64,000 bases of DNA, from positions 2,410 through 66,409 of the forward strand of contig JAGGVU010000019.1 of assembly GCA_021157845.1 (NCBI GenBank), in the 5' to 3' direction. A model generated the notes under the pieces. That model made no database searches. It worked only from the letters and a program-made list of their open reading frames with translations, and had not been told where the DNA came from. This DNA comes from Candidatus Aenigmatarchaeota archaeon (GTDB lineage: Archaea > Aenigmatarchaeota > Aenigmatarchaeia > GW2011-AR5 > JAGGXF01). The position numbers and the translations under genes are program-made. Shown in pieces: positions 6,103 through 28,613 of the stretch; the stretch's first letter is position 1; every line of letters begins with the position of its first letter.

Positions 6103-6140
<38 letters not shown>

Positions 6141-6232
6141 GCCATCTGAGTGGAGCTTTGGTGAGGCTTGTTCTAAAGTTGATTTTCAACTAATTGTACA
6201 AGTCGAACCAGAGCCCTACAAGGAGGGCTAAC

Positions 6233-7096
<864 letters not shown>

Positions 7097-9545: not shown

Positions 9546-10306
9546 AAATTTGGCTGTATGCTGAGACATCCAGTTAAGTTCTAGGTCCTGAGTAAGGAAC
9601 AATCCTAGAAATATGGACAATCAGCAGGAAACCGCGAGAGGTGATTTCTATGATAAAAAACAAATACCTTAACTGGTATTTAGTTGGCTTCACAGATGCA
9701 GAAGGTTGTTTTTCAATTTCATTAAAAAGAGAAAAAACAACTAAATTTGGATGGGCATTGGATCCAGTATTCCAAATAACACAGCATAAATCAAATGAAA
9801 AAGTTTTACATTTTTTCAAAAGACAACTGCATTGTGGAAGAATAATAGAAAAATCAGGACAACCAAATATTTTAGTTTATTTGGTTGATAATAGAAGACA
9901 ACTCGTAGAAAAAGTAATACCATTTTTCAAAAGATATAAACTGATTTTGAAAAACAACGATTTTCAGAAATTTACTGAAATTATAACAGACTTGGAAAAT
10001 AAACTGCATTCAAATAAAAAAACATTTATAGAATTAATAAAAAAATGTTTTGAAATGAATTTGAATGGTAAGCAAAGAAAATATGAGCTTGAATTTGTTT
10101 TGAAAAATCTAAAAAAATGAGCGGGATCCCCAGAGACTATACGCCAAACACAAAAATAGAACGGAGAGTATCCTTATTTTTGTGAAGAGATAGTCCGAAC
10201 CTTATGGAGACATAAGGAAACTTGTAGAAATACAAGTTCGCCTTATAGACAAAACATGCTTTGCATGTCAGTCTGTAAAGGTCATAAAGTAACAGATTGA
10301 GCGTAA
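9546..10306 (+). mobile_element. 23S rRNA intron 1 (about E. coli 1915-1930 region) with LAGLIDADG ORF
   Basis: Exon ...GGTGAAAATTGCCTT is interrupted and resumes at CCCTTGCCGGTTAAATGTTGGCCTGCA. Boundaries approximate. Confidence 0.5.
9641..10120 (+). CDS. LAGLIDADG homing endonuclease (single-motif)
   Basis: 159 aa; LVGFTDAEGCF motif. Confidence 0.7.
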   Translation: MISMIKNKYLNWYLVGFTDAEGCFSISLKREKTTKFGWALDPVFQITQHKSNEKVLHFFKRQLHCGRIIEKSGQPNILVYLVDNRRQLVEKVIPFFKRYKLILKNNDFQKFTEIITDLENKLHSNKKTFIELIKKCFEMNLNGKQRKYELEFVLKNLKK

Positions 10307-10804
10307 TCCCTTGCCGGTTAAATGTTGGCCTGCATGATAGATTAACGAGGTTTTCACTGTCCCAAACTAGACCCCGGCGAAACTATCTTTCTGGTGATTA
10401 GACCAGAGACCCCTAATGGGAAGAGTAGACCCCATGGAGCTTTACTGCAGTCTGTTGTTGTTGTATAATTATAATTGTATAGAGTAGGTAGGAGACGTCG
10501 ATATTAGGTCGTTAGATCTAATGGAGTCGCAATGTGTAACACTACCCTTTTATAACTATACAACTAACCTTCGGGGACATCAGCAGATGGGCAGTTTGAC
10601 TGGGGCGGTACGCCTCTGAAAGGATATCAGAGGTGCTCAAAGGTCGGCTCATCAGGGTCAGAAATCCTGAGTAGAGTGTAAAGGCAAAAGCCGGCTTGAT
10701 TGGATTTTGAACATCAAAAAATCCAAAGGCGAAAGCCTGACTTAGCGATACGCATGTTATCCTAGATGGATGCATGTGACATCAGAAAAGCTACCCTGGG
10801 GATA

Positions 10805-11528
10805 GTTTGTAGGTGGTTCTCAGTCGTTCAGCAAGCATATTCTAATTTTCGATCTCAAATACGAAAATTAGATAAGCTTACTTCACCTTAAATAAATCAT
10901 GAAAATTGAAAATTTTCAGTTAAACGCAAGAAATTTAACTAGTAACTATTTTTATGGATTTTTAGTTGGTGCTAGCGAAGACGGAACAGTTTATCAAAGA
11001 AAGAAGAAAAATGAATATATGGTAGAAATCGAGCAAAAATCTAAGTATTGGCTTGAATTTGTTCAGGAAATTATTTTGAGATTTTACAAAAAATCAGTGA
11101 AAATAAGAAAAACTTCAAAAGGATTTTACAGAATAAGAATTTATTCCAAGAAATTTTTCAATCAAATAAAAAAACACAGAATAAATTCCTCATGGATACT
11201 TAGAAAATCCAAAGAATTTCAACTAGGATTTCTTCAAGGAGTATATGATGCAGAAGGAAGTATTAAAAAATCCAGAAATCACATAACAATCAGTTCAAAT
11301 AGAAAAGATTTAATTAGAATATTACAGATTTTATTAACAAATCTTAATTTTAGACTAGGGAAAACTTGGAAAGATTATAATGGTGTTATTACTTTGCCAT
11401 TTTATGGTAAAGATAATCTGAAAAGATTTCAAGAATTAATAAATTTTAGACATCCGAAAAAGAAGGAAAGGCTTGCTGAGCTTCTGAACGATAATTACTT
11501 ACAGACCCCTAAAATGGTGTCGTAGCGG
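10805..11528 (+). mobile_element. 23S rRNA intron 2 (after CCCTGGGGATA, domain V) with LAGLIDADG ORF
   Basis: Conserved AAGCTACCCTGGGGATA is followed by non-rRNA sequence and the ORF. rRNA resumes near GAGAGTTCATATCGAC. Boundaries approximate. Confidence 0.5.
10899..11525 (+). CDS. LAGLIDADG homing endonuclease (double-motif)
   Basis: 208 aa; YGFLVGASEDGTV and LGFLQGVYDAEGSI motifs. Confidence 0.7.
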   Translation: MKIENFQLNARNLTSNYFYGFLVGASEDGTVYQRKKKNEYMVEIEQKSKYWLEFVQEIILRFYKKSVKIRKTSKGFYRIRIYSKKFFNQIKKHRINSSWILRKSKEFQLGFLQGVYDAEGSIKKSRNHITISSNRKDLIRILQILLTNLNFRLGKTWKDYNGVITLPFYGKDNLKRFQELINFRHPKKKERLAELLNDNYLQTPKMVS

Positions 11529-12157
11529 GTGAGAGTTCATATCGACCCCGCGTGTTGCGGCGTCGCTGTCGGCTCGCCCTCTCCTGGCTGTGCAGCAGCA
11601 GCCAAGGGTACCGGAGTTCACGGATTAAAAGGGCACGTTAGCTGGGTTTAGAACGGCGTGAGCCAGTTTGGACTATATCTGTTAGGGGTGCTTTTGTCTG
11701 AGAGTAAGGAAGAACAAGTACGAAAGGAACATTCTTCCGTGGCCTCTAGTCTACCAGTTGTCTGATAAGGCATCGCTGGGTAGCCACGCCACACGCGGAT
11801 AAGGGCTGAAAGCATCTAAGCCTCAAGCCGCTCTCGAAAATAGACAATGAGTGCCAGTAGAAGACTGGTTTGATAGGACAGGGGTGTAAGTATCAAGAAG
11901 AAATTCGAGATATTGAGCCTACTGTTACTAAAACTCACCAAAGCTAACCTTTAAATCAACTGAACCTGTGATTGTTTTTTTCTTTTTTTAAATTGTAGAT
12001 AAGTTTGATATTGCAGAAGCCTTTATAACTTAGAAGAGAAACAAAAAATAAAATCTACAGATAGAGAAGTTGCAATTACTCCGAAAGGTAAATCCTTTCT
12101 ATAAAGATTTATCTTTTACCTCAGTAATTTTTACAACTTTAGCATTTAAATAATTTA

Positions 12158-14377: not shown

Positions 14378-15088
14378 GTGATAAAAGTGAAAACACTAAT
14401 TATTGCAGCAGGTAGAGGAAAGCGATTAGCCATGAAAAAATGGCCAAAGTCATTGATACGAGTAAATGAAAAAACAATAATCGAAACTATTTTAGACGCC
14501 TGTAATAGTGTTGGCTTAGACGAGTTTGTTATTGTTACGGGTTATGAAGGAGAAAAAATAAAAGAAGCACTAAAAAATGGTAAAAATAAGATAAAATATA
14601 TTGAGAACCCAAATTTTTCAGAAAAAGAAAATGGGTATTCAGTTTATTGTGCTAAAGATGTTCTTAAAGAGAATTTCTTACTTTTAATGTCTGATCACAT
14701 AGTTGAACCCACTATTTTAGAAAAAATGGTAAATTATGAGATAGCGGATGGTTGTGCACTTTGTATTGACAAAGACCTAGAAAATATATTTGATTTAGAT
14801 GAAGCCACAAAAGTTTATGAGCAGGACAAAAAAATTTTAGATATAGGTAAAAAGATTAAATTATATAATGCTGTTGATACAGGATGTTTTTTTTGTACCC
14901 CATATATTTTTGAATCGTTAGAACAATCGATGAAAAATGGAACAACTAAATTATCTGATGCCATGAAATTAATGGCTTCAGAGGGGAAATTATTTTCTAT
15001 AGATATTACAGGAAACTTTTGGATAGATATTGACACAGAGGAAGATTTACAATGTGCTAGAAATTACTTAAAATCCTTAAAAGCCTAG
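14378..15088 (+). CDS. sugar-phosphate nucleotidyltransferase family protein
   Basis: LIIAAGRGKRL N-terminal NTP-transferase signature; 236 aa. Confidence 0.65.
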   Translation: MIKVKTLIIAAGRGKRLAMKKWPKSLIRVNEKTIIETILDACNSVGLDEFVIVTGYEGEKIKEALKNGKNKIKYIENPNFSEKENGYSVYCAKDVLKENFLLLMSDHIVEPTILEKMVNYEIADGCALCIDKDLENIFDLDEATKVYEQDKKILDIGKKIKLYNAVDTGCFFCTPYIFESLEQSMKNGTTKLSDAMKLMASEGKLFSIDITGNFWIDIDTEEDLQCARNYLKSLKA

Positions 15089-15963
15089 TGTTTAATCCCA
15101 GTCATAATTTTATTTAATATCTTTTCAAATTTTTTTTCAAATTTTTCATCATATTCAACTATAGGTTTTAGACGAACAAGAGCCTCTACGAATTTTTTAT
15201 CATAAGGAAGCTTCCCGAGAATTGATAATTTATTTTTATATGCAAATTGCTCTATTTTTCTGCTGAAATTTCTACTTAGATCATACTTGTTTATAATTAT
15301 TCCACAAGGAATATGAAAATTATCGAGGATCTGGAGACTTCTTTTCATGTCATGAAATGCTGAAGGTGTCGGCTCAGTTACAATCGCTCCATAATCAGAT
15401 CCTTGTATAGAGGATATAACAGGGCACCCAATGCCAGCAGCGCAGTCTATTAACATTATATCAGCGTTCTTTGCTACTTTTGATGCCGTATTTTTTACTT
15501 CTATAATTATTTTACCGCTTCCACTTTCACCCATTTTTAATTTTCCTGTAACTATTGGAAATCCGTGTGTTTGGCTCACACCTATATACGCATTTTTTAC
15601 TTTTTTAAGTTTTATAGCGTTTTCAGGACACACCAATAAACAGGCACCACATCCTTCGCATCGCATTTCGTCGAAGACCGGCCGTTCTTTATCCCACGAG
15701 ATAGCTGAGAAGTTACAAACATGAACACATTTTTTACACCCTATACATCTTTTCTTTATCAATACCGCTTTTTCGTTTGTTGAAATTTCTCTCCACTTAT
15801 AATCATTTTGGCGCAGGCCCAAAACCAGACCAAGATTAGGAGCATCAATATCACAATCAACCGCAATTATCTTCTTTTTTTTGGATAGAAGTACAGCCAA
15901 AGATGCTGTTATTGTTGATTTACCGACCCCTCCTTTTCCTGAAAGTATTGCTATTTTTTTCAT
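15085..15963 (-). CDS. MinD/ParA-family P-loop ATPase with inserted 2x[4Fe-4S] ferredoxin domain
   Basis: ILSGKGGVGKST deviant Walker A; CIGCKKCVHVC and CEGCGACLLVCP cysteine clusters. Confidence 0.75.
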   Translation of the reverse strand: MKKIAILSGKGGVGKSTITASLAVLLSKKKKIIAVDCDIDAPNLGLVLGLRQNDYKWREISTNEKAVLIKKRCIGCKKCVHVCNFSAISWDKERPVFDEMRCEGCGACLLVCPENAIKLKKVKNAYIGVSQTHGFPIVTGKLKMGESGSGKIIIEVKNTASKVAKNADIMLIDCAAGIGCPVISSIQGSDYGAIVTEPTPSAFHDMKRSLQILDNFHIPCGIIINKYDLSRNFSRKIEQFAYKNKLSILGKLPYDKKFVEALVRLKPIVEYDEKFEKKFEKILNKIMTGIKH

Positions 15964-16349
15964 CTAAACACCATACTTTTCATTTTTAGTTTCTTTATTT
16001 TACTTTTATTAATCATAAACAAATGACTTTCACAATTACAATCAGAACATCCAAATCCTTTGATTGGAACAGAAAACCCCATTAATTTTTTTGCAATTAA
16101 GCACTCTAGGTTTTTTGGACCTTTTTTAACCAAAACATCCTTCACGTTTGCATGCTCTAGCAGATAGTCTATATGCCAGTGTTTTTTCTTTCGCCTTTTC
16201 AAATGTCTTTTAACTCTTTGTTCAATTCCATTTTGGGCAGAACCCACGTAAACATACATGCCTCTCTTAAAAGGTATATGACCGAGTGAGCCAACTCTGA
16301 TTTTAATATTTTTCTCCAAATTTATGATAAGCGCATATATCCCTTTCAT
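15960..16349 (-). CDS. DUF123-type GIY-YIG-like nuclease domain protein with C-terminal Cys cluster
   Basis: GIYALIINL...GMYVYVGSA...KKKHWHIDYLL pattern; GCSDCNCESH; start and stop overlap the flanking ATPase genes. Confidence 0.5.
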   Translation of the reverse strand: MKGIYALIINLEKNIKIRVGSLGHIPFKRGMYVYVGSAQNGIEQRVKRHLKRRKKKHWHIDYLLEHANVKDVLVKKGPKNLECLIAKKLMGFSVPIKGFGCSDCNCESHLFMINKSKIKKLKMKSMVFR

Positions 16350-17191
16350 TGTTTGTTCATCTTCTCTATTTTTTCAGCAAGTTTTTCTATATTTTTGTCT
16401 TTTATTAATTCACCTTTGGAATATTGTTGTTGTATTTTTTTGCTATAAGGTATTTCTGATATCATTTCTACTCCGTAATTTTTAGCCATCTGCTTTATTT
16501 TACTTTTTTTTGCTATATCTGATCTATTTAGAATTATCTTTGTCGGTATATCTAATTTTTTTGTAAGTTGCAAAATTAAATCCAAGTCATGCTCTCCAAG
16601 AGGTGTTGGTTCTGTAACTGCTAATGCCAAGTTACATCCATCCAGCGCCGCGATAACATCACAATGTGTGCCTGCGGCAGTGTCTATTAAAATAAAATCA
16701 TAATTGCCTTTTATTTCTTTTTTTAGGGAATCTACAATAAGTTCAGAGATAAGTTCACCGGGCATTAATTCACCACTGAGAAAAGATAGATTTTGGTTTT
16801 TCCCCACAAAAATATTACCGACAGTTTTCGAAGATTTGGTTATAGCGTTTTCAGGACATACCAATAAACAGGCACCACACCCATTACATTGCTCTCTGAA
16901 AAATATAGGATATTTGTTTTTAACTTGGAGGATAGCATTAGCTTTACAAGCTTCAGAACATTTCCCACATTTTATGCACCTATCGAAATTCCATTTCGGA
17001 ATCATTTGTTTTACTTCTTTCAATTTTTTTCTTTCTATAGATAAAATCAGATGATCATTTGGGCAATCTACATCAGCATCTACCAGAAGAACGCTATTTT
17101 TTTTAGAAAGATATCCAGCTAACGATGTAGATATAACTGACTTCCCAGTTCCGCCTTTTCCACCTGTGATTGCGATTCTCATGGTTTTCAT
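16346..17191 (-). CDS. MinD/ParA-family P-loop ATPase with inserted 2x[4Fe-4S] ferredoxin domain (paralog)
   Basis: ITGGKGGTGKSV; CIKCGKCSEAC and CNGCGACLLVCP. Confidence 0.75.
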   Translation of the reverse strand: MKTMRIAITGGKGGTGKSVISTSLAGYLSKKNSVLLVDADVDCPNDHLILSIERKKLKEVKQMIPKWNFDRCIKCGKCSEACKANAILQVKNKYPIFFREQCNGCGACLLVCPENAITKSSKTVGNIFVGKNQNLSFLSGELMPGELISELIVDSLKKEIKGNYDFILIDTAAGTHCDVIAALDGCNLALAVTEPTPLGEHDLDLILQLTKKLDIPTKIILNRSDIAKKSKIKQMAKNYGVEMISEIPYSKKIQQQYSKGELIKDKNIEKLAEKIEKMNKQ

Positions 17192-17763
17192 GAATAATCC
17201 CCAATATTTTTAAAATCTTTGATTAGAATAGCTTTCATGCTCGGATTATATGCAGCAACAGCTGGGTGATACATTGCTACTATTTTTTCAATACCTACAA
17301 GATTAGCCAATGTAAAAACCCTTCCATGTATACTGCTTATTTTTTCTTGCTTCAATCTAAATTTATCAAAAATATATGATAATGCAAAATTTCCTAATGT
17401 AACAATAATCTTTGGTTGAATTATTTTTATTTGTTCATCGAGATAAGGGCTGCATGCCTTTATCTGCTCTGGAGATGGATTTGCATTATCAGGTGGCCGA
17501 CACTTTAATATGTTTGTAATGTAAATATCTTTTCTTTTTAACCCAATTGAGTTGAGTAATTCGTCAAATATTTTTCCTGCCCTGCCTACAAATGGTTTGC
17601 CTTGTTGATCTTCATTATAGCCAGGCGCCTCACCTATAAACATAATATTAGTAGTTAATGAACCTTCCCCGACAACAGGATTAGTTCTGGTTTTCCATAG
17701 ATTACATCGCTTACACAGATAAATCTTTTGTTTCAACGAATTCATTTCATCAATCATACCCAT
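17188..17763 (-). CDS. udg: uracil-DNA glycosylase, family 4 (Fe-S type)
   Basis: CKRCNLW...GEAPG...GKPFVGRAG...HPA family-4 motifs. Confidence 0.8.
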   Translation of the reverse strand: MGMIDEMNSLKQKIYLCKRCNLWKTRTNPVVGEGSLTTNIMFIGEAPGYNEDQQGKPFVGRAGKIFDELLNSIGLKRKDIYITNILKCRPPDNANPSPEQIKACSPYLDEQIKIIQPKIIVTLGNFALSYIFDKFRLKQEKISSIHGRVFTLANLVGIEKIVAMYHPAVAAYNPSMKAILIKDFKNIGDYS

Positions 17764-17801
17764 CTTTTACCATAAATTTCAATTATATTTGATGCCGATT
17801 C

Positions 17802-19268
17802 TCATACCCGTCCCATAACCATTGCTATACCGAGGCAGATTATAATCAATCCAGCGACTAGATGTAAATAGCGAATATTCTTGTCCTTCCATCCGGAAAC
17901 GTCTTCGACCTTCTTAATTCCGGCGTAGACAACTAATGTTATAGCAATCATAGGTAGAACAAAAATTGAGTTATAAATCAATAACCATGGTATGGTTTTC
18001 ATCAGCTCAAGCGCAGATAATATACCACTTGCTATGACATAAGGTCCGATTGTGCAAGGTAAAAGAAACACTGTTACAAACAACCCAACCACAAACGCGC
18101 CCCTCGGTGATGTCACTCTTGATATGATTTTCTTAACCTTCGGTCGCAACATCATAGGCATCTCTGTTCCAAGTCTGCCAGGTTTGTAGTGAAAGAAATC
18201 CCTCAGGTTTAGCAAACCAAGTATCACTGCGAGCAAACCAAGTATTTTATACAACCACAGTCTAATCGCGGCGAGTGCCTGTATAAGCTGGAAGAATCTT
18301 ATAATAACCAAGCCATAGAAAAGATACATGACGAAAACCGATATCGTGAAAGCCAAGCCAGCCAGCAGAACATTTCTTTTCTTTTTCGGATTGTAAGTAA
18401 GTATTGCTATTAGCATCAGTGTAAGCACAGCCAAGGCGCACGGATTCACTGCATCAACAGCTGCCAGCGAAACTATTTTGGGTAGAGTCAAGTCTTTTTT
18501 AGTTTCCTCCTTGTTACTTCTATCTGTCTCGTTTACATCATTAGTCCAGTTGCCACCCGTTCCATTATTCTCCAGACCATTCCCATTCCATTGAAATGTC
18601 CAGCCTTTTAGCTTTATTGCGTTGTCAAATTTCACGCTACTTCCGGAGAGTGGAGCAGGTTTTGCATCAGTTGTCTCATAGCTTTTATTATTCAGCAAAG
18701 AGCAAGGCGTTTCGGTTCCCAACAAATCTTTTAGTAGTTGATTATCTCCCCCTTCCCCTGTCTTTATCAGAATTCTATCCTTGGCCCATATCTTCGGCTT
18801 TCCGGGCAATGATACAATGTCCATCTGACTAAACGGAACAGAAGAACCGTTCAGCAATGGGCAAGGATTCCAGCTAAGATTATTAATTGTTTTTTCCGCA
18901 TTTTGCAAAATCGGGATGTCACCAATAATATGTTTATCCTTGCTAAATATTATTAGAGGAATTCCAAGGCCGGAATTATAGTTAGAATCATAACCATAGA
19001 GCAGTTGAGCATTGTCCCGCTCTTGATAAATTTCATACTCAATTATAACCAGATCATTATATTCGTTGACAAGTTCACTAAGAACGACAGGGTCTGCTCT
19101 TGCACAGTGTGGGCAACCTACACCCGTGAAATAAACAGCACATACAATATTTGTATTATTGGTTATGTTATCAGAATCAGTCGCGAGTGCAAAAGCCGCA
19201 AATGTAGTTATGATTATTGGAATCAAAACAAGTACTGACAAAGTTTTCATTTTTCTCACCCCCCACAT
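17802..19268 (-). CDS. thioredoxin-fold (CPHC) domain fused to CcdA/DsbD-type transmembrane disulfide-transfer domain
   Basis: Signal peptide; GVGCPHCA; C-terminal multi-TM with NPCALAVL and LPCTIGPY. Confidence 0.65.
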   Translation of the reverse strand: MWGVRKMKTLSVLVLIPIIITTFAAFALATDSDNITNNTNIVCAVYFTGVGCPHCARADPVVLSELVNEYNDLVIIEYEIYQERDNAQLLYGYDSNYNSGLGIPLIIFSKDKHIIGDIPILQNAEKTINNLSWNPCPLLNGSSVPFSQMDIVSLPGKPKIWAKDRILIKTGEGGDNQLLKDLLGTETPCSLLNNKSYETTDAKPAPLSGSSVKFDNAIKLKGWTFQWNGNGLENNGTGGNWTNDVNETDRSNKEETKKDLTLPKIVSLAAVDAVNPCALAVLTLMLIAILTYNPKKKRNVLLAGLAFTISVFVMYLFYGLVIIRFFQLIQALAAIRLWLYKILGLLAVILGLLNLRDFFHYKPGRLGTEMPMMLRPKVKKIISRVTSPRGAFVVGLFVTVFLLPCTIGPYVIASGILSALELMKTIPWLLIYNSIFVLPMIAITLVVYAGIKKVEDVSGWKDKNIRYLHLVAGLIIICLGIAMVMGRV

Positions 19269-19323
19269 AATTTGACTTTAAATATTTGTCAAATAAATTT
19301 TAATTTTTTGCTAATCTATGCAA

Positions 19324-19683
19324 CTATATTTTATGTTCGTCGCAACTGTTATCTCTTGTTGCCTTCTCGAGCTTTCCAGATTTCCAAAGATCAAATATTT
19401 CTTTGGCAGTTTTTGCTTGGCTTGTATAAACAACAATTCCAAGCTTTTCACAAAGCTCTATGGCACTTGGGCCAATCCCTTGGCAAAGCAGAATATCAAT
19501 ATTATGCTTCTTAAGCAGTTCTGGCGGAAGTCCTGTTCCTCCCATATGTGCGCTCTCATTATTCAAGGTTTCAACAATTTTTCCATCCTCATCTATAATA
19601 AGATAAAATTCACATCTTCCGAAGTGATACGCGACATCGCTATATAATCCTTTGTTTTCATCGATTGGGATCGCAATTCTCAT
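19324..19683 (-). CDS. NifX/NifB-like (dinitrogenase FeMo-cofactor family) small protein
   Basis: MRIAIPIDE...HFGRCEFYLI...GVD/IL.. pattern; 119 aa. Confidence 0.65.
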   Translation of the reverse strand: MRIAIPIDENKGLYSDVAYHFGRCEFYLIIDEDGKIVETLNNESAHMGGTGLPPELLKKHNIDILLCQGIGPSAIELCEKLGIVVYTSQAKTAKEIFDLWKSGKLEKATRDNSCDEHKI

Positions 19684-20483
19684 TTTAACACCTCTTTTAC
19701 AATAGTATTTACAATATGCTTAAATTCCTCTGCGGATTCAAACGACTCAAGGACAAATGGCTTTTTCTTTTCTGCGCATCTTGCTATCCCCGCATCCAAT
19801 TTCAGCCTGCCTAAAAATTTTACTCCGATATCTGCTGCGGCCTTTTCCCCACCCCCAGTTCCGAATATTTCTCCAGACATGTTTTCTATGATACCCAGGA
19901 CAGGTATCTTAAGTTTTTTTGCCATATTTACTGATTTTTTTGCATCAACAACAGCTACATCTGTTGGTGTTGTTACTACAATTATACCATCTGGTACAAG
20001 CTCTTGCATAATTGTTAAAGAGCTATCGCTTGTTCCTGGCGGAAGGTCAATAACCAAATAATCCAGTTTACCCCATTCAACCTGCTCCAAAAGTTGCATT
20101 ATGGCCTTGGAGAGCATAGGTCCACGCCAGATAATAGGTTGGTCCTCTCTTTCTTGGAGCGACGCAAATGAAACCACATCTATGCCATATTTTTTGATTG
20201 GAATAATTTTTTCATTTTTCACAGATAAATGCTCCTCTATTCCCATAAATTTATTTACATTTGGACAGTCTATGTCAGCATCAAGAAGTGCAACGCGTAC
20301 AGGCTTTGTTGGTTCAGTTTTTGCCAGCGAAACTGCGAGATTGACTGCAACTGTTGTCTTACCAACACCACCTTTGCCGCTCATTACAGCTATTTTATAT
20401 TTTATTTTTTTCATATTTGCTTTTATTATTTCTCTTCTTTTCTGCATCTCTCTGCGCAATTCTAGGATATCCATATCAATCAT
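19680..20483 (-). CDS. Mrp/NBP35/ApbC-family Fe-S cluster carrier ATPase
   Basis: IAVMSGKGGVGKTT, DADIDCPN, DYLVIDLPPGTSD. Confidence 0.8.
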   Translation of the reverse strand: MIDMDILELRREMQKRREIIKANMKKIKYKIAVMSGKGGVGKTTVAVNLAVSLAKTEPTKPVRVALLDADIDCPNVNKFMGIEEHLSVKNEKIIPIKKYGIDVVSFASLQEREDQPIIWRGPMLSKAIMQLLEQVEWGKLDYLVIDLPPGTSDSSLTIMQELVPDGIIVVTTPTDVAVVDAKKSVNMAKKLKIPVLGIIENMSGEIFGTGGGEKAAADIGVKFLGRLKLDAGIARCAEKKKPFVLESFESAEEFKHIVNTIVKEVLK

Positions 20484-20500
20484 CTATTTTTATCAACTTT

Positions 20501-21745
20501 TTAGTCTTTCTTCCTCGTTTGTTTTGTTAATCTTTCAAGTTTATTTTTTAAGAAGTTATCTATAACCTCTTTTGCGGTTCTACCTTTTATCTTGTAGATG
20601 TCAATTAAATTATCTCGCATGCTGTGGAAGGAAATTTCGCCAATTTCTTTTGTTATGAGTATGTCTACTTTTTCTTTCAGAAGAAAATGTACAGTAGATA
20701 GTCCTGCACGGACGCTCTTGCTCTTATTTGGGTTCGGTTTTGAGTAAAATCTGCGGATAGATTTTCTTTCAGTTTCAACAAAGAGAAAATAATCTGCTCG
20801 GCCAAAATGTTCTACGACTACTGAATCCAACCCCTTTGGTTTTTTTATCGGTATCGCAACTTTATGTTTTAAGCTTTCATAAGGTTCTATATGAATAGTA
20901 AAGGAATTGACGTCTTTGAATTTCTTTTTTACTTTTCTTTCAATTTGATCAGCTATTTCATGTGCTTTGTTAACATTAGCAAATTTCTTAATTTTTATAC
21001 TAACCTCCCCAAAAATAAATGGTCCGGACCTCCTAAGTTTAAGATTATTCAAGCTTTCTACACCAGGAGTTAGCTTTATCTGCTTCTCTATGTTTTTAAC
21101 AAGTATTTTATTAGGACTGACATCCATCAATGAAAATATAGAATCCCTTAAACTAAAAAGCCCAAATTTAAGCACAATCATAGAAATTATTATTGTGATT
21201 AGCCCTTCTATATAAGGGATTTTATAATTAGAAAGCAGAATTGTAATAAAAACGATGAAAGAAACAAAAACATCTTTTAGCCGGTCCTTGCTCATTATAT
21301 CAAGGCTCTGGGAGTTTATTTCTTTACTAACTCTTTTTAAATATGCTGAGTTGACAAAGGCCACTAAGCCAGAACTTGCGGCAACGGTTAGTGAGATAAT
21401 AGGATGTTGGATAGTTGCCAGAGCAAAAATTCTCTGATACCCATCAAAAAGTAACCTTATAGCTCCATACGTTATAATTATAGAAATGAATAGGGCCGAT
21501 ATATTTTCAGCCTTATAATAGCCGTAAGGAAATTTTTCATTTGGCTTTCTTTGAGATAACTTGAGGCTAAAAAAAGATGCTAAGCCAGAAATTATATCAG
21601 ATGCTGACTCCAGTGCATCACTTATCAAAACCAATGAGCCAGACAAAAACCCAGCTATTCCTTTTGCTAAAGCTAAGAAAAGGGAAATAGATATAGAGAT
21701 GAGAGAGGCCTTTACTCCCATCTTTAAATCAGTTTCCTTATTCAT
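20501..21745 (-). CDS. cation diffusion facilitator (CDF) transporter fused to C-terminal NifX-like domain
   Basis: TM region with SGSLVLISDALES. C-terminal KVAIPIKK...HFGRADYFLFVE...DILITKEIG matches the NifX-like fold. Start codon uncertain; 21721 is an alternative. Confidence 0.6.
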   Translation of the reverse strand: MNKETDLKMGVKASLISISISLFLALAKGIAGFLSGSLVLISDALESASDIISGLASFFSLKLSQRKPNEKFPYGYYKAENISALFISIIITYGAIRLLFDGYQRIFALATIQHPIISLTVAASSGLVAFVNSAYLKRVSKEINSQSLDIMSKDRLKDVFVSFIVFITILLSNYKIPYIEGLITIIISMIVLKFGLFSLRDSIFSLMDVSPNKILVKNIEKQIKLTPGVESLNNLKLRRSGPFIFGEVSIKIKKFANVNKAHEIADQIERKVKKKFKDVNSFTIHIEPYESLKHKVAIPIKKPKGLDSVVVEHFGRADYFLFVETERKSIRRFYSKPNPNKSKSVRAGLSTVHFLLKEKVDILITKEIGEISFHSMRDNLIDIYKIKGRTAKEVIDNFLKNKLERLTKQTRKKD

Positions 21746-22139
21746 TCCATCTGCCTCTTCTTCCAAAGCCACGTCTAAATCCAAAACCAGCGGTTCTTAT
21801 CTGAGCCTTTTTCAGCTCTCCTCTTATAAATTTTTCTATGTTATCTTTTACAGTTCCGCCAACGCCTTCGTAGATTTCTATTTCAAGTTGCTGCAAAGCT
21901 GCAAAAGCCCTTGGGCCAAATGCCAGCGATATCGCAGCTTTTGCTTCTGTATTACCAACTATTTGCGCTGCTACTATGCCTGCTCCTCCCCTCTGATTTA
22001 TGGCAGGATTCTCTATTACTTCTGTACTTTTTATTTTATTATTTTCTATGTTCACAACTGCAAAATATGGGCATCTTCCAAAAATTGGACTTATCTGGCT
22101 TTCTATATCTTTTCCAGTTGAGCTAATTGCTACTTTCAT
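21738..22139 (-). CDS. NifX-like domain protein with Gly/Arg-rich tail
   Basis: MKVAISSTGKDIESQISPIFGRCPYFAVVNIENNK..., then TAGFGFRRGFGRRGRW tail. Upstream in-frame extension judged unlikely. Confidence 0.55.
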   Translation of the reverse strand: MKVAISSTGKDIESQISPIFGRCPYFAVVNIENNKIKSTEVIENPAINQRGGAGIVAAQIVGNTEAKAAISLAFGPRAFAALQQLEIEIYEGVGGTVKDNIEKFIRGELKKAQIRTAGFGFRRGFGRRGRWNE

Positions 22140-22322
22140 TTTTTTCACCTTCCTAACATACGGGTTCCACACTTTTGGCCCAACTTCTGATTGTATGGAA
22201 TACCCTCTGATGTGTATCTTTATATCCACATTTTGGACATATACATTCGGCTGTTCCAAAATCTTATTCCCACACCTATTCCTTGACCAGTTCCTCTTGG
22301 TATATTAATCATCTCTATATAT

Positions 22323-22565
22323 TTACCATCGCCCTCTTCCATCTCTTGGTCGTGGTAATCCTCTTGGATTTATGTCTGATTGGTGTCCAAATCCTCTGCC
22401 AAATCCTCTTCCACGACCGCGTCCTAGTCCAAATGGTCTGAATCTTGGTCGATAAGTTGGCTCTTTTTTCTCTGTTGTCGGGATTATACAATATCCACGA
22501 CCTCTTCCTGTCATTGGACCCTTTCCTTCTGGACCTGTTCCATCATATCCTGGCATGTTATTCAC
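22323..22565 (-). CDS. DUF5320-family protein (Gly/Arg-rich)
   Basis: MPGYDGTGPEGKGPMTGRGRGYC N-terminal signature followed by RGRGRGFGRGFG repeats. Confidence 0.55.
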   Translation of the reverse strand: MNNMPGYDGTGPEGKGPMTGRGRGYCIIPTTEKKEPTYRPRFRPFGLGRGRGRGFGRGFGHQSDINPRGLPRPRDGRGRW

Positions 22566-22583
22566 CTCCTTTCTAAATAAACA

Positions 22584-22991
22584 TTATTTTCTCCTCATAA
22601 AAGACCCGCATTTTTTACATTTAGTTTTGCTGCAGGGAATTCCTCTTATGTGATATTCTTTGTATCCGCATATAGGGCAGACACAATATTCTGATTTTTG
22701 AGCTATTCTATAATTACCACCCTTTATTTGAATCGCCTTCCCATTAATCAGCGCATCTGAAATCTTCTTTTTAGCTGAGTTCAGTATACGCTGAAAAGTG
22801 CCCCGGGAAATTTTCATCTTTTTGGCGCATGCTTTTTGGTTAAGCCCATTAAGGTCTTTCAATTTTATTGCTTCAAGTTCCTCTATTTTTAGTATAACCT
22901 TTTCTAAATCTGAAAGGGGAATTCTCCTTGGTTTGAAGTAGTTTACCTCTGGTTCATTCTGAACTATTCTTATTTTTCTCGGTCTTACCAT
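22584..22991 (-). CDS. DUF134-family predicted DNA-binding regulator with C-terminal zinc ribbon
   Basis: MVRPRKIRIV..NYFKPRRIP...LEAIKLKDLNGLNQKACAKKMKISRGTFQRIL; CPICG...CKKCG. Confidence 0.6.
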   Translation of the reverse strand: MVRPRKIRIVQNEPEVNYFKPRRIPLSDLEKVILKIEELEAIKLKDLNGLNQKACAKKMKISRGTFQRILNSAKKKISDALINGKAIQIKGGNYRIAQKSEYCVCPICGYKEYHIRGIPCSKTKCKKCGSFMRRK

Positions 22992-23107
22992 ACTGTGCAT
23001 ATGCACATAAATGTTTATAAAGCTATTGTTACGACGATTTTATGCAGAAAGCAATTTTTATGAATTATTTATAAATAATTCGTCATAATCTAATTTAATG
23101 TGATGAT

Positions 23108-23293
23108 ATGAAACTATTGGTTATTTTGTTGGTTATATTAATTTTTGTAAGTGGCTGTGTTACAGGAAACGTGGATGACAATATTTCAGCACAAAAACAG
23201 GCAGCTCAAAACCAAAACAAGTTAATCAACACAACAGAAAATGAGCCAGATTATGAAATAGCTGGTCAGATAAATGTGAGCGGAGTGCCATGA
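23108..23293 (+). CDS. small putative lipoprotein
   Basis: Signal peptide with SGC lipobox-like sequence; 61 aa; weak. Confidence 0.2.
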   Translation: MKLLVILLVILIFVSGCVTGNVDDNISAQKQAAQNQNKLINTTENEPDYEIAGQINVSGVP

Positions 23294-25158: not shown

Positions 25159-25689
25159 ATGATTGAAATACGCATAAACGGAAGGGGCGGGCAAGGCGCT
25201 GTGACAACTTCCGAGATTTTGGCAATAGCTGCTTTTAAAGACGGAAGATATTCGCAGGCTTTTCCTCATTTTGGGGTCGAGAGAAGAGGAGCACCAGCAA
25301 TGGCATTCTGCAGAATAGACGATAAAGAAATAAAACTGAGGACCCATGTCTATACGCCGGATTATATAATCATCTTGGATCCATCATTGCTTAATCTGCC
25401 GGATACGCTAAATGGGTTGAAAAATAGCGGAATCATCATTCTGAACTCTAAAGAAAAATACATAGAACTTGAAAAAAAATACAAGATTATATATGTTGAC
25501 GCCACCCAGATAGCATTGGATATAATAGGAAAACCAATTGTAAATACAGCAGTACTTGGCGCGCTGTCAAAGAAGACAAGTCTGGTAAGTTTAAACGCAT
25601 TAAAAGATGCTATAAAGGAAAAATTTTCTGGAGAATTGGCTGACAAAAATATTGAGGTTCTGCAAAAAGTTTATGATTCCACTAATTAG
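25159..25689 (+). CDS. porG: pyruvate:ferredoxin oxidoreductase gamma subunit
   Basis: IRINGRGGQGAVT; operon context. Confidence 0.8.
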   Translation: MIEIRINGRGGQGAVTTSEILAIAAFKDGRYSQAFPHFGVERRGAPAMAFCRIDDKEIKLRTHVYTPDYIIILDPSLLNLPDTLNGLKNSGIIILNSKEKYIELEKKYKIIYVDATQIALDIIGKPIVNTAVLGALSKKTSLVSLNALKDAIKEKFSGELADKNIEVLQKVYDSTN

Positions 25690-25968
25690 GTGTGTTTTAT
25701 GGATAAGAAATTTAACGAAGGTGCCTGGGCTGAGCCAGGAACGTCTGTTAAAAATAAGACAGGATCGTGGAGAACTTTTAAGCCGATTGTGACTGATAGA
25801 TGTGTTGGTTGCGGAACATGTACAAAATTCTGTCCTGAAGGAGCTATAAAGATTGTTGAAAAAAATGGGAAAAAAAAGGCAGAGATAAATTATGATTATT
25901 GCAAAGGATGTTTGATATGTTTGAAAGAATGCCCATTTAAGGCTATAGAAAAAGAAGTTGAAAAATAA
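25690..25968 (+). CDS. porD: pyruvate:ferredoxin oxidoreductase delta subunit (2x[4Fe-4S])
   Basis: CVGCGTCTKFCP, CKGCLICLKECP. Confidence 0.8.
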   Translation: MCFMDKKFNEGAWAEPGTSVKNKTGSWRTFKPIVTDRCVGCGTCTKFCPEGAIKIVEKNGKKKAEINYDYCKGCLICLKECPFKAIEKEVEK

Positions 25969-25987
25969 GTTGAAGCGGTGATTTTAT

Positions 25988-27118
25988 ATGAAAAAGGTCA
26001 TAGAAGGAAGCCACGCAGTAGCAGAGGCTGTCCGATTATGTGCACCAAAGGTAATTGCCGCCTATCCCATAACACCGCAAACACATATAGTTGAACGATT
26101 GAGCAAGATGGTTGCTGATGGACAATTGGATAGTGAGTTTTTATGTGTTGAGTCGGAGCATTCAGCTATGTCTGCATGCATAGGTGCTCAGGCAACAGGT
26201 GTTAGAACATATACAGCAACAGCTTCCCAAGGCCTGATGTTGATGCACGAAATGCTGCATGTTGCTTCTGGCATGAGACTACCAATAGTTATAAATGTTG
26301 CGAACAGATCAGTTTCTAGCCCACTTAGTATATGGAATGACTGGCTTGATGCAATGGCTGTTCGTAATTCTGGTTGGGTCCAGTTGTTTGTCGAATCAAG
26401 CCAAGAAGCGTTAGATACCACTATACAAGCTTATAAAATTGCGGAAACAATCCACCTGCCTGTCATGGTTTGCATAGACGGGTTTTATTTGTCTCATACC
26501 TACGAGCCCGTTGATATTCCAGATACGGTAGCTGGATATCTTGGCGACTATAAACCAAAGGTTGTTTTGGATCCAAAAAACCCAATAACACAAGGTATGA
26601 TGGCAGGTCCAAAAGCATTTCAGGAGTTCAAGGAACAACAACATAGGGCTTTGCTTAGCGCTAAAGATGTGATAAAAAATGAGAATAGAGAGTTCAACAA
26701 AAAATTTGGCAGAATATATGGAGATGGGTTGGTAGAAACTTATAATATGGAATCTGCAGATTATGCAATAATTTCTATGGGCTCTGTATGTGGAACAATT
26801 AAGCATATTTTGGATGAGAAAAAAATATCTGATATTGGGCTAATACGTATAAAGACATATAGACCGTTCCCAAATAAAGAAATAATAGATTTAACTAAAA
26901 ATCTAAAAGCTTTGGGTGTGCTTGAGAAGGACATTTCCTTTGGAATTGGAGGAGCGTTGTGGGCAGATGTTAAGACATTTGTAGATAAGCCAGTTTCTAA
27001 TTTTATAGGAGGTCTGGGTGGAAGAGATATTCAGATAGAGGATATAGTCAAAATCTTTGGGACCATAAGAAAAGAAGAAGAAAATATTCATTGGGTCGGT
27101 TCCCAGCTAAAAAAGTGA
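25988..27118 (+). CDS. porA: pyruvate:ferredoxin oxidoreductase alpha subunit
   Basis: 376 aa; GSHAVAEAVRLC..AYPITPQT. Confidence 0.8.
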   Translation: MKKVIEGSHAVAEAVRLCAPKVIAAYPITPQTHIVERLSKMVADGQLDSEFLCVESEHSAMSACIGAQATGVRTYTATASQGLMLMHEMLHVASGMRLPIVINVANRSVSSPLSIWNDWLDAMAVRNSGWVQLFVESSQEALDTTIQAYKIAETIHLPVMVCIDGFYLSHTYEPVDIPDTVAGYLGDYKPKVVLDPKNPITQGMMAGPKAFQEFKEQQHRALLSAKDVIKNENREFNKKFGRIYGDGLVETYNMESADYAIISMGSVCGTIKHILDEKKISDIGLIRIKTYRPFPNKEIIDLTKNLKALGVLEKDISFGIGGALWADVKTFVDKPVSNFIGGLGGRDIQIEDIVKIFGTIRKEEENIHWVGSQLKK

Positions 27119-27122
27119 TATT

Positions 27123-27977
27123 ATGAAAAAATTGCTTTCGTTTGGTACGAGGTCATGCGCAGGTTGTCCAGCATCTTTAGCTGTAAGAAGAATTTTAGAA
27201 GCAGTTGGAGATAATGTTATTATTGTGAATGGAACAAGTTGTCTTGAAGTAACCACAACACAATATCCATTAAGCTCTTGGAATGTTCCCTACATACATA
27301 CAGCCTTTGAATGTACCGGAGCTGTTGCTTCTGGTGTTGAGTCTGCGTTGAAAAAAATGGGAAAAGACACACATGTTGTGGCAATTGCCGGAGATGGTGG
27401 GACATTTGATATTGGATTGCAGTCTTTATCAGGAATGATTGACAGGGGGCATAATGTCTTGTATATATGCTATGATAATGAATGTTACGCAAATACTGGT
27501 TTGCAAAGAAGTTCAGCTACTCCCTATGGTGCAGCTACAACTACCAGCCCCCCTGGCAAATTTTCTATTGGAAATAAAACATTTAAAAAGCCAATTGTGC
27601 AGATGCTTGCTGCACAAAAAGTTCCATATGTTGCCACCGCTTCTTTGGCATACCCAGATGACTTAGAAAGAAAAGTGAAAAAGGCGTTGACAATCAAAGG
27701 CCCGAAATTCATACATATACTTGCGCCATGCCCAATTTCTTGGCGATTTGACAGCTCTGAAACTATACATGTAGCACGGCTTGCTGTTGAAACAGGTATG
27801 TGGATTTTGTGCGAAATAGAAAATGGAAAAATTAAAATAAATGTCACACCATCGGAAAGAAAGCCAGTTAAAGACTATCTTAGTTTGCAGGGCAGGTTTA
27901 AGCATCTAAAGGACGAAGATATAAAAAAAATACAAGAAAAAGTAGACGATGATTGGAAAGCATACAAGAAATATTAA
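27123..27977 (+). CDS. porB: pyruvate:ferredoxin oxidoreductase beta subunit (TPP-binding)
   Basis: CAGCPASL, GDGGTFDIG, TGLQ. Confidence 0.8.
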   Translation: MKKLLSFGTRSCAGCPASLAVRRILEAVGDNVIIVNGTSCLEVTTTQYPLSSWNVPYIHTAFECTGAVASGVESALKKMGKDTHVVAIAGDGGTFDIGLQSLSGMIDRGHNVLYICYDNECYANTGLQRSSATPYGAATTTSPPGKFSIGNKTFKKPIVQMLAAQKVPYVATASLAYPDDLERKVKKALTIKGPKFIHILAPCPISWRFDSSETIHVARLAVETGMWILCEIENGKIKINVTPSERKPVKDYLSLQGRFKHLKDEDIKKIQEKVDDDWKAYKKY

Positions 27978-28013
27978 TTTAAACCTTCACAGCTATTCTA
28001 ATCAGGTGACTTT

Positions 28014-28613
28014 ATGCTTGGAAAATTTATAGTATTTGAGGGTCTGGATGGTTCTGGGATATCGACACAGTCGGGTTTGCTTTATGATTATTTTTCAAAA
28101 AAAGGCAAAAAGACAGTTCTGACAAAGGAACAGACAAACGGTTTAATAGGTGGCTTAATAAAGGCCGGTTTGCGGCATGAATGGAAAACAACTCCTTTAG
28201 CTCTGCAACTTTTATTTGCTGCGGACCGTTCACACCATTTGGATAAACAGATTAATCCAGCTATTAATAATGGAAAGATAGTTATATGTGACAGATACAT
28301 ATTGTCTACGCTGGCATTTGGCTCTTTGGATGTTGATATGCAATTTTTAAAAGAGATTAACTCAAAATTTCCAGCTCCGGATATAACATTCATTTTAGAT
28401 GTTTTGCCAAAAATTTGTCTTCAACGAATTACTAAGTCCAGATTTCACGCAGAATTGTTTGAGGAGGAGGAAAAACTAAATAAAATAAGGAAAGCATATC
28501 TTTCTTTAAAAAATTATTTCCCAAATACATTTGTAATAGATGGCAACAGATCCATAGAAGAAGTTCATAAAGACATAGTTAAAATCGTAGAGGAGCAAAT
28601 CAAAGAGAAATAA
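28014..28613 (+). CDS. tmk: thymidylate kinase-like (P-loop reads GSGIST; canonical Lys missing)
   Basis: FIVFEGLDGSGIST, DRY motif; 199 aa. Confidence 0.65.
   Translation: MLGKFIVFEGLDGSGISTQSGLLYDYFSKKGKKTVLTKEQTNGLIGGLIKAGLRHEWKTTPLALQLLFAADRSHHLDKQINPAINNGKIVICDRYILSTLAFGSLDVDMQFLKEINSKFPAPDITFILDVLPKICLQRITKSRFHAELFEEEEKLNKIRKAYLSLKNYFPNTFVIDGNRSIEEVHKDIVKIVEEQIKEK

Follow-up and report, generated by a model that had tools for sequence, protein, structure and literature searches.

A DPANN/Patescibacteria variant of the ORP gene cluster, built on IssA-like NifX-fold proteins and carrying a CDF::NifX fusion

What could unite a cation exporter, several NifX-fold proteins, P-loop ATPases and a DUF134 regulator in a single transcription unit? 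The question is raised by an operon of 11 co-directional minus-strand genes (15085-23021) in a metagenome-assembled genome (MAG) of a Candidatus (Ca.) Aenigmarchaeota (DPANN) archaeon, which we analyzed within a window of 64,000 nt (assembly GCA_021157845.1, contig JAGGVU010000019.1, positions 2,410 to 66,409). We find that the operon is a variant, found mostly in DPANN archaea and Patescibacteria (candidate phyla radiation, CPR), of the anaerobe-specific ORP (orange protein complex) cluster, and that it is built on IssA-type NifX-fold proteins. The ORP cluster was reportedly described in 2011 and is said to have been without settled function ever since. For the present operon we tentatively propose that it manages a labile iron/iron-sulfide pool, in which efflux by a cation-diffusion-facilitator (CDF) transporter would be coupled to the load of that transporter's NifX domain, a reading that we hold as plausible though still somewhat short of probable. 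We favor it because of the ORP-type gene set together with circumstantial links to iron (PMC10533852, PMC8516115).

The unit is longer than had been thought. An earlier note on this DNA recognized six co-oriented minus-strand open reading frames (ORFs), which are present as described between 19324 and 23006 and whose domain assignments by hidden Markov model all score above the Pfam gathering score. It took these six for the whole unit, which in fact continues downstream of 19324 on the same strand with five further genes, separated by gaps of at most 55 nt or joined by 4-nt overlaps. Because this same-strand run reaches 15085, two MinD-ferredoxin genes lie within the operon, and a convergent gene that starts beyond the second of them (15085-15963) marks the operon's end. 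Besides these five genes, a six-cysteine (6-Cys) module, a pseudogene and a candidate operator had been overlooked. Plus-strand ORFs overlapping the cluster have no family matches and were rejected as spurious, and Rfam and tRNA scans of the whole window found no element inside the gene cluster.

Central to our proposal is the gene at 20501-21784 (minus strand), which encodes a CDF transporter with a NifX-fold domain fused to its cytoplasmic end; judged from homologue N-termini, its start is probably ATG 21745. Three Pfam domains make up the protein, Cation_efflux (PF01545, 1.9e-42, 145.7 bits against a cutoff of 26.6), ZT_dimer (PF16916, 3.5e-17) and Nitro_FeMo-Co (PF02579, 2.5e-14), with the transmembrane domain at residues 25-220, the C-terminal domain (CTD) of the transporter at residues 225-302 and the NifX domain at residues 305-427 (20504-20872). 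The NCBIfam CDF model TIGR01297 scores 215.6 bits (cutoff 82.35), and the best equivalog-type NCBIfam matches are MamM, MamB, MntE and FieF (154-118 bits), with ZitB (61 bits) and DmeF (37 bits) well under them. The AlphaFold2 (AF2) model (pLDDT 81.7) shows six transmembrane (TM) helices and a YiiP-like alpha-beta-beta-alpha-beta CTD (residues 226-302); the NifX domain, modeled with a pLDDT of 85-92, starts about 3 residues past the last CTD strand.

In its transporter part the fusion resembles the YiiP/FieF and MamM/MamB CDFs, with which it shares the six TM helices, the cytoplasmic ZT_dimer domain and a transport site whose four polar residues stand where those of YiiP do. Alignment to Shewanella YiiP places site A at E59/D63 of TM2 and D167/D171 of TM5, at the positions of the D/D and H/D pairs of YiiP, which makes the transport site of the window protein all-carboxylate, E-D-D-D. 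Across 86 homologues the site-A quartets are HDED (36), HDEH (32), DDED (7), EDDD (5), DDDD (5) and HDDD (1), so that the first TM5 ligand of the fusion family is acidic (Glu/Asp), unlike the His of YiiP/FieF and MamM/MamB. In the CTD, H275, H298 and E300 are invariant or nearly so and align with the site-C ligands of YiiP. Compared with the solved CDFs, the fusion alone adds a C-terminal NifX-fold domain through the ~3-residue connection, and no chain in the PDB spans the transmembrane domain, CTD and NifX domain together. A further difference is that some members terminate in cationic tails rich in RW or RG (11 of 86 fusions, e.g. RRRGPWWRR). The fused NifX domain itself is basic (pI 10.1) and, as in most IPR003731 proteins, usually Cys-free (61 of the 86 homologues). 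It constitutes a subfamily of its own, with 138 clusters at E ≤ 1e-10, and about half of the 150 matches listed in that search are proteins of 400-460 aa that carry the domain at ~290-415. Relatives of the whole fusion number 783 at E ≤ 1e-10, and the best 120 all combine PF01545, PF16916 and PF02579; one, MCD6216141.1 from a Ca. Aenigmarchaeota MAG, falls in the fusion's 90% cluster and has the same length, 427 aa. Our searches of the searchable literature for a CDF-NifX fusion found no paper describing the family.

The fusion, which the earlier note had described at the cytoplasmic end of the transporter, is both real and conserved: a scan using one genome per species found it encoded in 278 species genomes. 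By record titles the hosts are mostly Aenigmat-, Woese-, Micr-, Iain- and Parvarchaeota and Patescibacteria, and a few are titled Bathyarchaeia, Thermoplasmata, Actinomycetota, Gammaproteobacteria or Pseudomonadales (labels as deposited). To count neighbors, the window proteins were searched against the six-frame ORFs of 84 fusion loci of different species, and matches up to 8 kb from the fusion were counted. A NifX-like gene was found at 70 of the 84 loci, a MinD-ferredoxin at 64, where the pair is the commonest downstream neighbor, and DUF134 or its Cys module at 59; the thioredoxin-DsbD (Trx-DsbD) protein occurs at 32, DUF5320 at no fewer than 22 (a lower bound, given the short query), a metallo-β-lactamase (MBL)-fold gene at 15, a uracil-DNA glycosylase (UDG) at 14, Patescibacteria included, a ZIP transporter at 11 and an Mrp-type gene at 7. 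The usual order is [DUF5320]-DUF134-NifX(RG tail)-CDF::NifX-[NifX]-MinDFdx-MinDFdx, and called genes with precomputed Pfam matches give the same picture, with one bacterial cluster adjoining FeoAB. FeoAB, ZIP and EncFtn/rubrerythrin genes adjoin related clusters. These counts bear out the earlier statement that DUF134, DUF5320, NifX-like and MinD-ferredoxin genes co-occur. Relatives keep the gene order far beyond chance, and the neighborhood is retained across archaeal and bacterial phyla, so that neither of the outcomes named by the earlier note as refuting its reading came about.

Upstream of the fusion lies a gene for a 133-aa NifX-fold protein with a cationic tail (21738-22139, minus strand). 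It had been read as a 173-aa ORF from TTG 22259, which begins too early; its first 40 residues come from reading through a decayed small gene in the wrong frame, so that N-terminus is false and the real gene is 21738-22139. The protein matches PF02579 (5.6e-20) and has as its closest solved structure MTH1175 (1eo1, E 2.3e-29). Its tail, QIRTAGFGFRRGFGRRGRWNE, counts 21 residues with 5 Gly, 6 Arg and 4 aromatics and has a pI of 12.0, and the whole protein has a pI of 9.8. The tail, though short, is kept in orthologues: among the 96 single-domain NifX ORFs at related loci, 53 bear an equivalent cationic tail, and practically all of these belong to this upstream type. Two other arrangements were seen in related loci: NifX domains followed by a DUF5320-type coiled-coil tail (L013, L020, L022) and NifX domains followed by an RG tail and the 6-Cys module (L014, L016).

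To our knowledge, IssA is the sole characterized Fe-S storage protein. It stores Fe and S as thioferrate, and its cationic, unstructured Gly/aromatic-rich tail has been proposed to bind the thioferrate polyanion (PMC5524996, Vaccaro et al.). We draw the link to the window protein through MTH1175, its nearest solved relative, which is placed in the IssA clade (PMC5524996). Like IssA of P. furiosus, the window protein combines a globular IPR003731/PF02579 domain with a cationic, unstructured Gly/aromatic tail behind it, and it has a high pI and few Cys. It differs from IssA in standing in an operon with a transporter that bears a second, related domain. The same study noted an uncharacterized, non-thermophile 'IssX' clade with Gly-rich tails (PMC5524996), and IssA homologues are up in FeS2-grown M. 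voltae, which accumulates thioferrate-like signals (PMC8516115).

The second stand-alone NifX-fold gene (19324-19683, minus strand) encodes a protein of another character. It matches PF02579 (1.9e-16), is acidic (pI 5.3) and contains 4 Cys and 4 His, with a conserved C-terminal Cys..His motif that recurs among orthologues in such forms as EESCGH or SCDEHK. Its gene overlaps the Mrp gene by 4 nt, and the protein aligns with positions 265-360 of the MrpORP model, which make up the model's C-terminal domain.

Set beside the ORP cluster of Desulfovibrio vulgaris Hildenborough (orp3-4-5 / orp7-8-9; PMC6345978, PMC8359166), the operon shows the same core. Both have a pair of MinD-type ATPases with 2x[4Fe-4S] ferredoxin inserts, which in ORP are the MinD-ferredoxins Orp3 and Orp4 (PMC6345978) and in the window are encoded at 16346-17191 (copy 1, Orp3/Orp4-like, with two CxxCxxCxxxC motifs in its sequence) and 15085-15963 (copy 2, the last gene of the operon), both on the minus strand and both with CbiA, ParA and Fer4 matches. 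Both have several small NifX-fold proteins, in the window two stand-alone PF02579 genes and one fused domain, in ORP the NifX-like Orp8, the orange protein (PMC6345978), and Orp5, a homologue of Dde_3197, which is similar to NifX-type proteins (PMC10533852). In both an Mrp-type ATPase is associated with a NifX domain (Orp9/MrpORP in ORP, where MrpORP combines Mrp with NifX and transfers clusters to Orp proteins; PMC6345978), and both are restricted to anaerobes. The ORP proteins are mostly Fe-S proteins, expression of their genes is confined to very low redox potential (PMC8359166), and in D. alaskensis the ORP genes Dde_3197-3199 co-vary with feoA and flavodoxin (PMC10533852).

The control and the complement of genes differ. 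ORP consists of two divergent sigma54 operons with the PAS-AAA+ regulator OrpR, whereas the window has a single operon, which is headed by a TATA box and a palindrome, includes a DUF134 regulator bearing the 6-Cys module and encodes no enhancer-binding protein. In the window the Mrp and NifX genes are separate and the Mrp protein lacks CXXC, the operon adds the CDF::NifX fusion, the Trx-DsbD membrane protein, DUF5320, family-4 UDG and DUF123, and its hosts are DPANN archaea and Patescibacteria. The earlier statement that the unit has no assigned function thus stands in one respect, since the role of ORP was still called unclear in 2021 (PMC8359166), and falls in another, since the unit matches the ORP cluster and IssA-type storage proteins.

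The Mrp-like P-loop ATPase is encoded at 19680-20483 (minus strand). It is a member of the ParA/NUBPL family (PF10609, 1.7e-79) and, like MrpORP, ApbC and Nbp35, which share that fold family, has the deviant Walker A motif (SGKGGVGKTT; GKGGhGK[ST] is the Mrp/NBP35/ApbC family criterion, PMC6345978). Unlike them, it has lost the CXXC loop, the motif that binds the bridging [4Fe-4S] cluster and is essential (PMC6345978): where ApbC (8zkc) and the archaeal 2ph1 and 3kb1 carry the loop, the window protein reads ENMS-G-EIFGTGG, ENMSGEIFGTGG; past the Walker A region, a DADIDCPN motif provides a Cys instead. Because three related genomes share the deletion (L006, L007 and L029, the first two also with the DADIDCPN motif), we regard the CXXC-less proteins as a real subfamily, one that we have not found described in the searchable literature. 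The adjoining NifX-fold partner mirrors the second of MrpORP's two domains, except that the MrpORP-like halves are here separate genes overlapping by 4 nt and not a single polypeptide; neither passes the NCBIfam MrpORP cutoff of 450 bits (NF041136; 254.5 bits for the Mrp gene, 41.6 bits for the NifX gene). With its CXXC loop deleted, the protein does not qualify as a canonical Fe-S carrier. The earlier view of it as the Mrp/NBP35 Fe-S carrier that rounds off the set is therefore wrong, and wrong also because the Mrp-type gene is an accessory (7/84 fusion loci), the core ATPases being the two MinD-ferredoxins.

At the head of the operon, the DUF134 helix-turn-helix (HTH) regulator (22584-22991, minus strand; PF02001, 1.5e-27, 96.4 bits against a cutoff of 27) probably starts, by homology, at ATG 22991. 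Its C-terminus bears a module of 6 Cys and a His, CxCPxCG-x4-H-x2-G-xPC-x4-CxxCG (~22608-22688), and a stand-alone small gene encodes the near-identical pattern CxCPxCG-x4-H-x2-G-xPC-x4-CPxCG. In related loci the module is found as 26 stand-alone ORFs, in at least 7 fusions to the DUF134 HTH, in 2 to NifX with an RG tail and in 1 to a DUF5320 head. This shuffling of modules among members indicates that the small proteins work together. A profile search with the 6-Cys module returned more than 1000 clusters of 44-80 aa 'hypothetical proteins' with no Pfam domain. Family members combine an RG-rich head with an invariant CxCPxCG..H..G.PC....CPxCG..M.R module (examples are L006 3491-3661, L007 1421-1546, L087 5001-5216, among others). 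The family is closely tied to CDF::NifX clusters, and two of three sampled members directly adjoin a CDF::NifX gene. In its CPxCG knuckles the module is reminiscent of rubredoxin or zinc ribbons; a Pfam scan of the module gave only sub-threshold generic zinc-ribbon matches, and Foldseek with an AF2 model of the 6-Cys protein (pLDDT 75.9) gave only matches with E > 0.1, of faint zinc-ribbon/rubredoxin-like resemblance. We considered and rejected an identification of the module with Orp5/Dde_3197, described as a small [2Fe-2S] protein encoded in the ORP operon, as Dde_3197 is reported to be similar to NifX-type proteins (PMC10533852); the Cys/His NifX gene at 19324-19683 appears the likelier Orp5 analogue.

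Between DUF134 and the tailed NifX gene lies DUF5320 (22323-22565, minus strand; PF17253, 2.7e-12, 48.2 bits against a cutoff of 27), which matches only positions 1-54 of the 99 of the model. The protein (pI 11.5; 19 Gly, 14 Arg) has the conserved MPGYDGTGP..GRGRGYC head followed by an RG/FG-rich tail and does not have the coiled-coil half of the model. The 183-nt gap that separates it from the NifX gene holds a decayed small 6-Cys gene (22145-22312, minus strand), recognized by synteny and tblastn (E 2.5e-9 in one frame, with a second piece in another frame), whose counterpart is intact at the same place in L006 and L007. The pseudogene aligns with the L006 and L007 genes at the DNA level, its start codon has changed from ATG to ATA, an 8-nt and a 1-nt deletion both shift the frame, and two Cys codons are replaced. 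Because an intact module is now fused to the neighboring DUF134, this looks like a recent event of fusion and decay. We found neither the 6-Cys family nor this history described in the searchable literature, and literature searches on DUF134, DUF5320, COG1342, COG1433 and COG1149 found no paper on the function of these families.

A plausible route of control is suggested by the sequence just upstream of DUF134. Reading toward the gene, a TATA-like box, TTTATAAA (23014-23021, minus strand, read from sequence), is followed by a perfect 14-bp palindrome, TGTGCATATGCACA (22994-23007, strand not applicable), and then by the ATG that homologues use; the alternative DUF134 start, GTG 23006, falls within the palindrome. 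L006 and L007, the closest relatives, carry an identical TTTATAAA aligned with the box, which we take as a putative promoter element of the operon, and the transcript is probably leaderless. In these relatives the stretch with box and palindrome lies at L006 ~2590-2620 and L007 488-515. At the place of the palindrome the same two relatives carry TTATGAACATATGTTCATAA, which, standing for TGTGCATATGCACA, amounts to a matched change of half-sites. TGTGCATATGCACA itself is present exactly once in the window, where further copies are only chance-level mismatched matches inside rRNA. A strict palindrome pattern, run over 1.26 Mb of loci, matches 12 times (0.2 in shuffles) and each time at a cluster's 5' end; the consensus in several DPANN lineages is ATGAAYATATRTTCAT, also written ATGAACATATGTTCAT. 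The interval between a TATA box and a start codon is the classic position of an archaeal repressor operator. We propose the palindrome as a candidate DUF134 operator, one not found described in the searchable literature; autoregulation by DUF134 would be the obvious, if unproven, consequence.

The remaining genes of the operon lie downstream. The membrane protein at 17802-19268 (minus strand) has an N-terminal thioredoxin-like region with a CPHC motif, two membrane PC motifs and a DsbD_2 match just under cutoff (5.6e-5), which together describe a thioredoxin-like plus DsbD/CcdA-like protein; its L003 homologue matches PF02683 DsbD_TM. Other relatives include L001 9223-10410 and L004 8066-9253, and some have no precomputed Pfam match at all. 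The UDG (17188-17763, minus strand) belongs to family 4 (TIGR00758 UDG_fam4, 227.7 bits against a cutoff of 125.3) and scores 246 bits with NF040953 Arch_udg, just below its cutoff of 250. Family-4 UDGs carry a [4Fe-4S] cluster, and the recurrence of the gene suggests that the enzyme is an Fe-S client or else that the block was transferred as a whole. DUF123 (GIY-YIG-like; 15960-16349, minus strand; PF01986, 3.1e-30) overlaps each neighbor by 4 nt. The UDG and DUF123 genes are translationally coupled within the operon.

Based on these likenesses, we propose that the operon's products would act on one iron/iron-sulfide pool. The basic, tailed NifX protein would, by analogy with IssA, hold iron and sulfide sequestered in an anionic Fe-S species, and the RG-rich DUF5320 protein would probably contribute. 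The two MinD-ferredoxin ATPases and the split MrpORP-like pair may load or transfer clusters, as ORP and MrpORP suggest. The YiiP-like CDF antiporter would export divalent metal that is in excess, with Fe(II) or Mn(II) as the likeliest substrate, and the fused basic, Cys-free NifX domain would govern this efflux according to its load. The architecture is observed directly, and the earlier suggestion, a coupling of metal transport with a module that binds cofactors, stays the best reading of it, the function being inferred. Reducing power may be passed outward by the Trx-DsbD membrane protein. The DUF134/6-Cys protein would bind the palindrome and switch the operon by Fe, Fe-S or redox status.

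It is also conceivable, if distinctly unlikely, that the operon goes further and builds a membrane-associated iron-sulfide storage body, with CDF::NifX as its membrane-anchored gate or nucleation site. The Gly/Arg/aromatic segments of the NifX, DUF5320 and 6-Cys proteins and of some transporters would then serve as a shared address tag for an anionic Fe-S polymer, and the DUF134/6-Cys protein would sense the state of the store at the conserved operator. If true, this would be a previously unrecognized iron-organizing system typical of ultra-small DPANN archaea and Patescibacteria, analogous to ferritin or to ferrosome/magnetosome iron handling, yet sulfide-based.

Other functions have to be weighed against iron/iron-sulfide management. 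A generic homeostasis of divalent metals (Zn, Mn, Co, Cd), in which the fused NifX domain is an extra cytoplasmic sensor or buffer like the His-rich loops of ZnTs, or in which the exporter supplies metal to enzymes outside the cytoplasm, for instance the lipoprotein-type MBL of relatives, would suit a transporter whose closest solved structures are the Zn-transporting YiiP and ZnTs and whose homologues mostly have a TM2 His (H-D-E-D, H-D-E-H); ZIP (11/84) and MBL-fold (15/84) genes at related loci and an L001 MBL that starts with a signal or lipobox-like sequence point the same way. Yet it does not explain why, in archaea and bacteria alike, the transporter is so closely linked to IssA-type NifX proteins, to the MinD-ferredoxin pair and to the 6-Cys module, the family scores prefer MamM, MamB, MntE and FieF over ZitB, DmeF and Cdf31, and NifX-fold domains bind Fe-S-based cofactors, not free Zn (PMC5524996), so we consider it unlikely, if a serious contender. 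The three NifX-like domains might alternatively handle a heterometallic Mo/W-Cu-S or nitrogenase-type cofactor, after the Mo-Cu cluster of orange protein and NifX/NafY: all three match PF02579 and orange protein 2wfb (3.5e-10 for the NifX-tail protein; 9.1e-3 and 3.2e-4 for the others), and Orp8 homologues bind S2MoS2CuS2MoS2 (PMC6345978). That we judge very improbable, given that matches to MTH1175 and TM-type proteins are far stronger than those to orange protein, that neither the window nor the conserved neighbors contain nif, mod or Moco genes, that CDFs move divalent cations rather than oxyanions or thiometallates, and that the hosts are small-genome DPANN/CPR organisms.

The ATPases and the tails each invite a further explanation. 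Since the core ATPases belong to the MinD/ParA superfamily, the proteins could act with their partners in septum placement or morphology, with their clusters only as redox sensors; ORP has been called 'putatively involved in cell division', loss of OrpR leads to morphological defects (PMC6345978, PMC8359166) and MrpORP localizes to the pole (PMC6345978). A role in division or positioning is nonetheless improbable here, as it would leave the conserved CDF, ZIP, FeoAB, DsbD-like and IssA-type tail features unexplained, and the ORP authors themselves termed the role unclear (PMC8359166). As for the RG/FG tails, the earlier note had offered RNA binding or condensates, a nucleic-acid-linked system that would draw on the RG-rich segments of four kinds of member (the NifX tail, DUF5320, the 6-Cys protein head and some fusions) and on the DNA-binding regulator, UDG and GIY-YIG-like gene in the operon. 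What recurs at the loci is DNA repair (UDG, 14/84, with DUF123 in the window), whereas the conserved neighborhood of the 84 loci has no RNA-metabolism gene and the region no Rfam element, and the sole studied NifX fold with a cationic Gly/aromatic tail binds an inorganic polyanion, thioferrate (PMC5524996). By analogy with that tail of IssA, thioferrate binding would fit the RG tails better, and we give the nucleic-acid reading hardly any credence. The recurrence of one RG chemistry fits a shared polyanionic partner, for which an Fe-S polymer is, because of the IssA precedent, the economical candidate.

Several points weigh against iron/iron-sulfide management itself. The function of the DPANN/CPR members is read from sequence and analogy, and the ORP complex has been linked to cell morphology, not to iron (PMC8359166). 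The likeness to IssA depends on the placement of MTH1175, not on P. furiosus IssA (PF2025) itself, whose tail is 70 residues long with a Pro-rich segment, against 21 residues without one here. Metal specificity of CDFs is not reliably readable from sequence, and the H-D-E-D or H-D-E-H sites of most homologues are no known Fe signature. With a Mrp-like protein that has no CXXC, one presumed transfer step is left without its usual chemistry, and regulation by DUF134 is deduced from position only. Finally, iron homeostasis explains the UDG, DUF123 and MBL genes only as possible Fe-S clients or hitch-hikers.

Around the operon, an AT-rich inverted repeat (23054-23089; 18+18 nt, 83% complementary, no spacer) occupies the divergent intergenic region that separates it from a small lipoprotein-like ORF (23108-23293). 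About 2 kb off the operon, on the opposite strand, ORF content indicates a four-gene 2-oxoacid:ferredoxin oxidoreductase-like set (25159-28613) in the order gamma, delta-ferredoxin, alpha, beta, of which only the delta ferredoxin was matched, by a weak cross-hit; this Fe-S-rich enzyme is a possible client of the operon. Rfam and tRNA scans place an archaeal rRNA operon, RNase P and one tRNA in the window. The large-subunit rRNA match (7423-11950) spans 4528 nt against a 2987-position archaeal model and the small-subunit match (4504-6256) 1753 nt against 1478 model positions, which suggests that both rRNA genes carry large insertions (introns or expansion segments).

ORP-type clusters and tailed NifX proteins are already known kinds. 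What the present locus supplies, in the fusion of an exporter to an IssA/NifX-type domain, is a Rosetta-stone link between the ORP/IssA proteins and transmembrane metal flux. The analysis also yields parts that lend themselves to testing: a transporter whose sensor domain is detachable, a 6-Cys family, a CXXC-less Mrp and a candidate DUF134 operator. The uptake, storage and disposal of iron and sulfide by strict anaerobes are poorly known, especially in DPANN archaea and Patescibacteria, which lack much of standard metabolism, and it is in these organisms that the operon would manage the labile iron/iron-sulfide pool.

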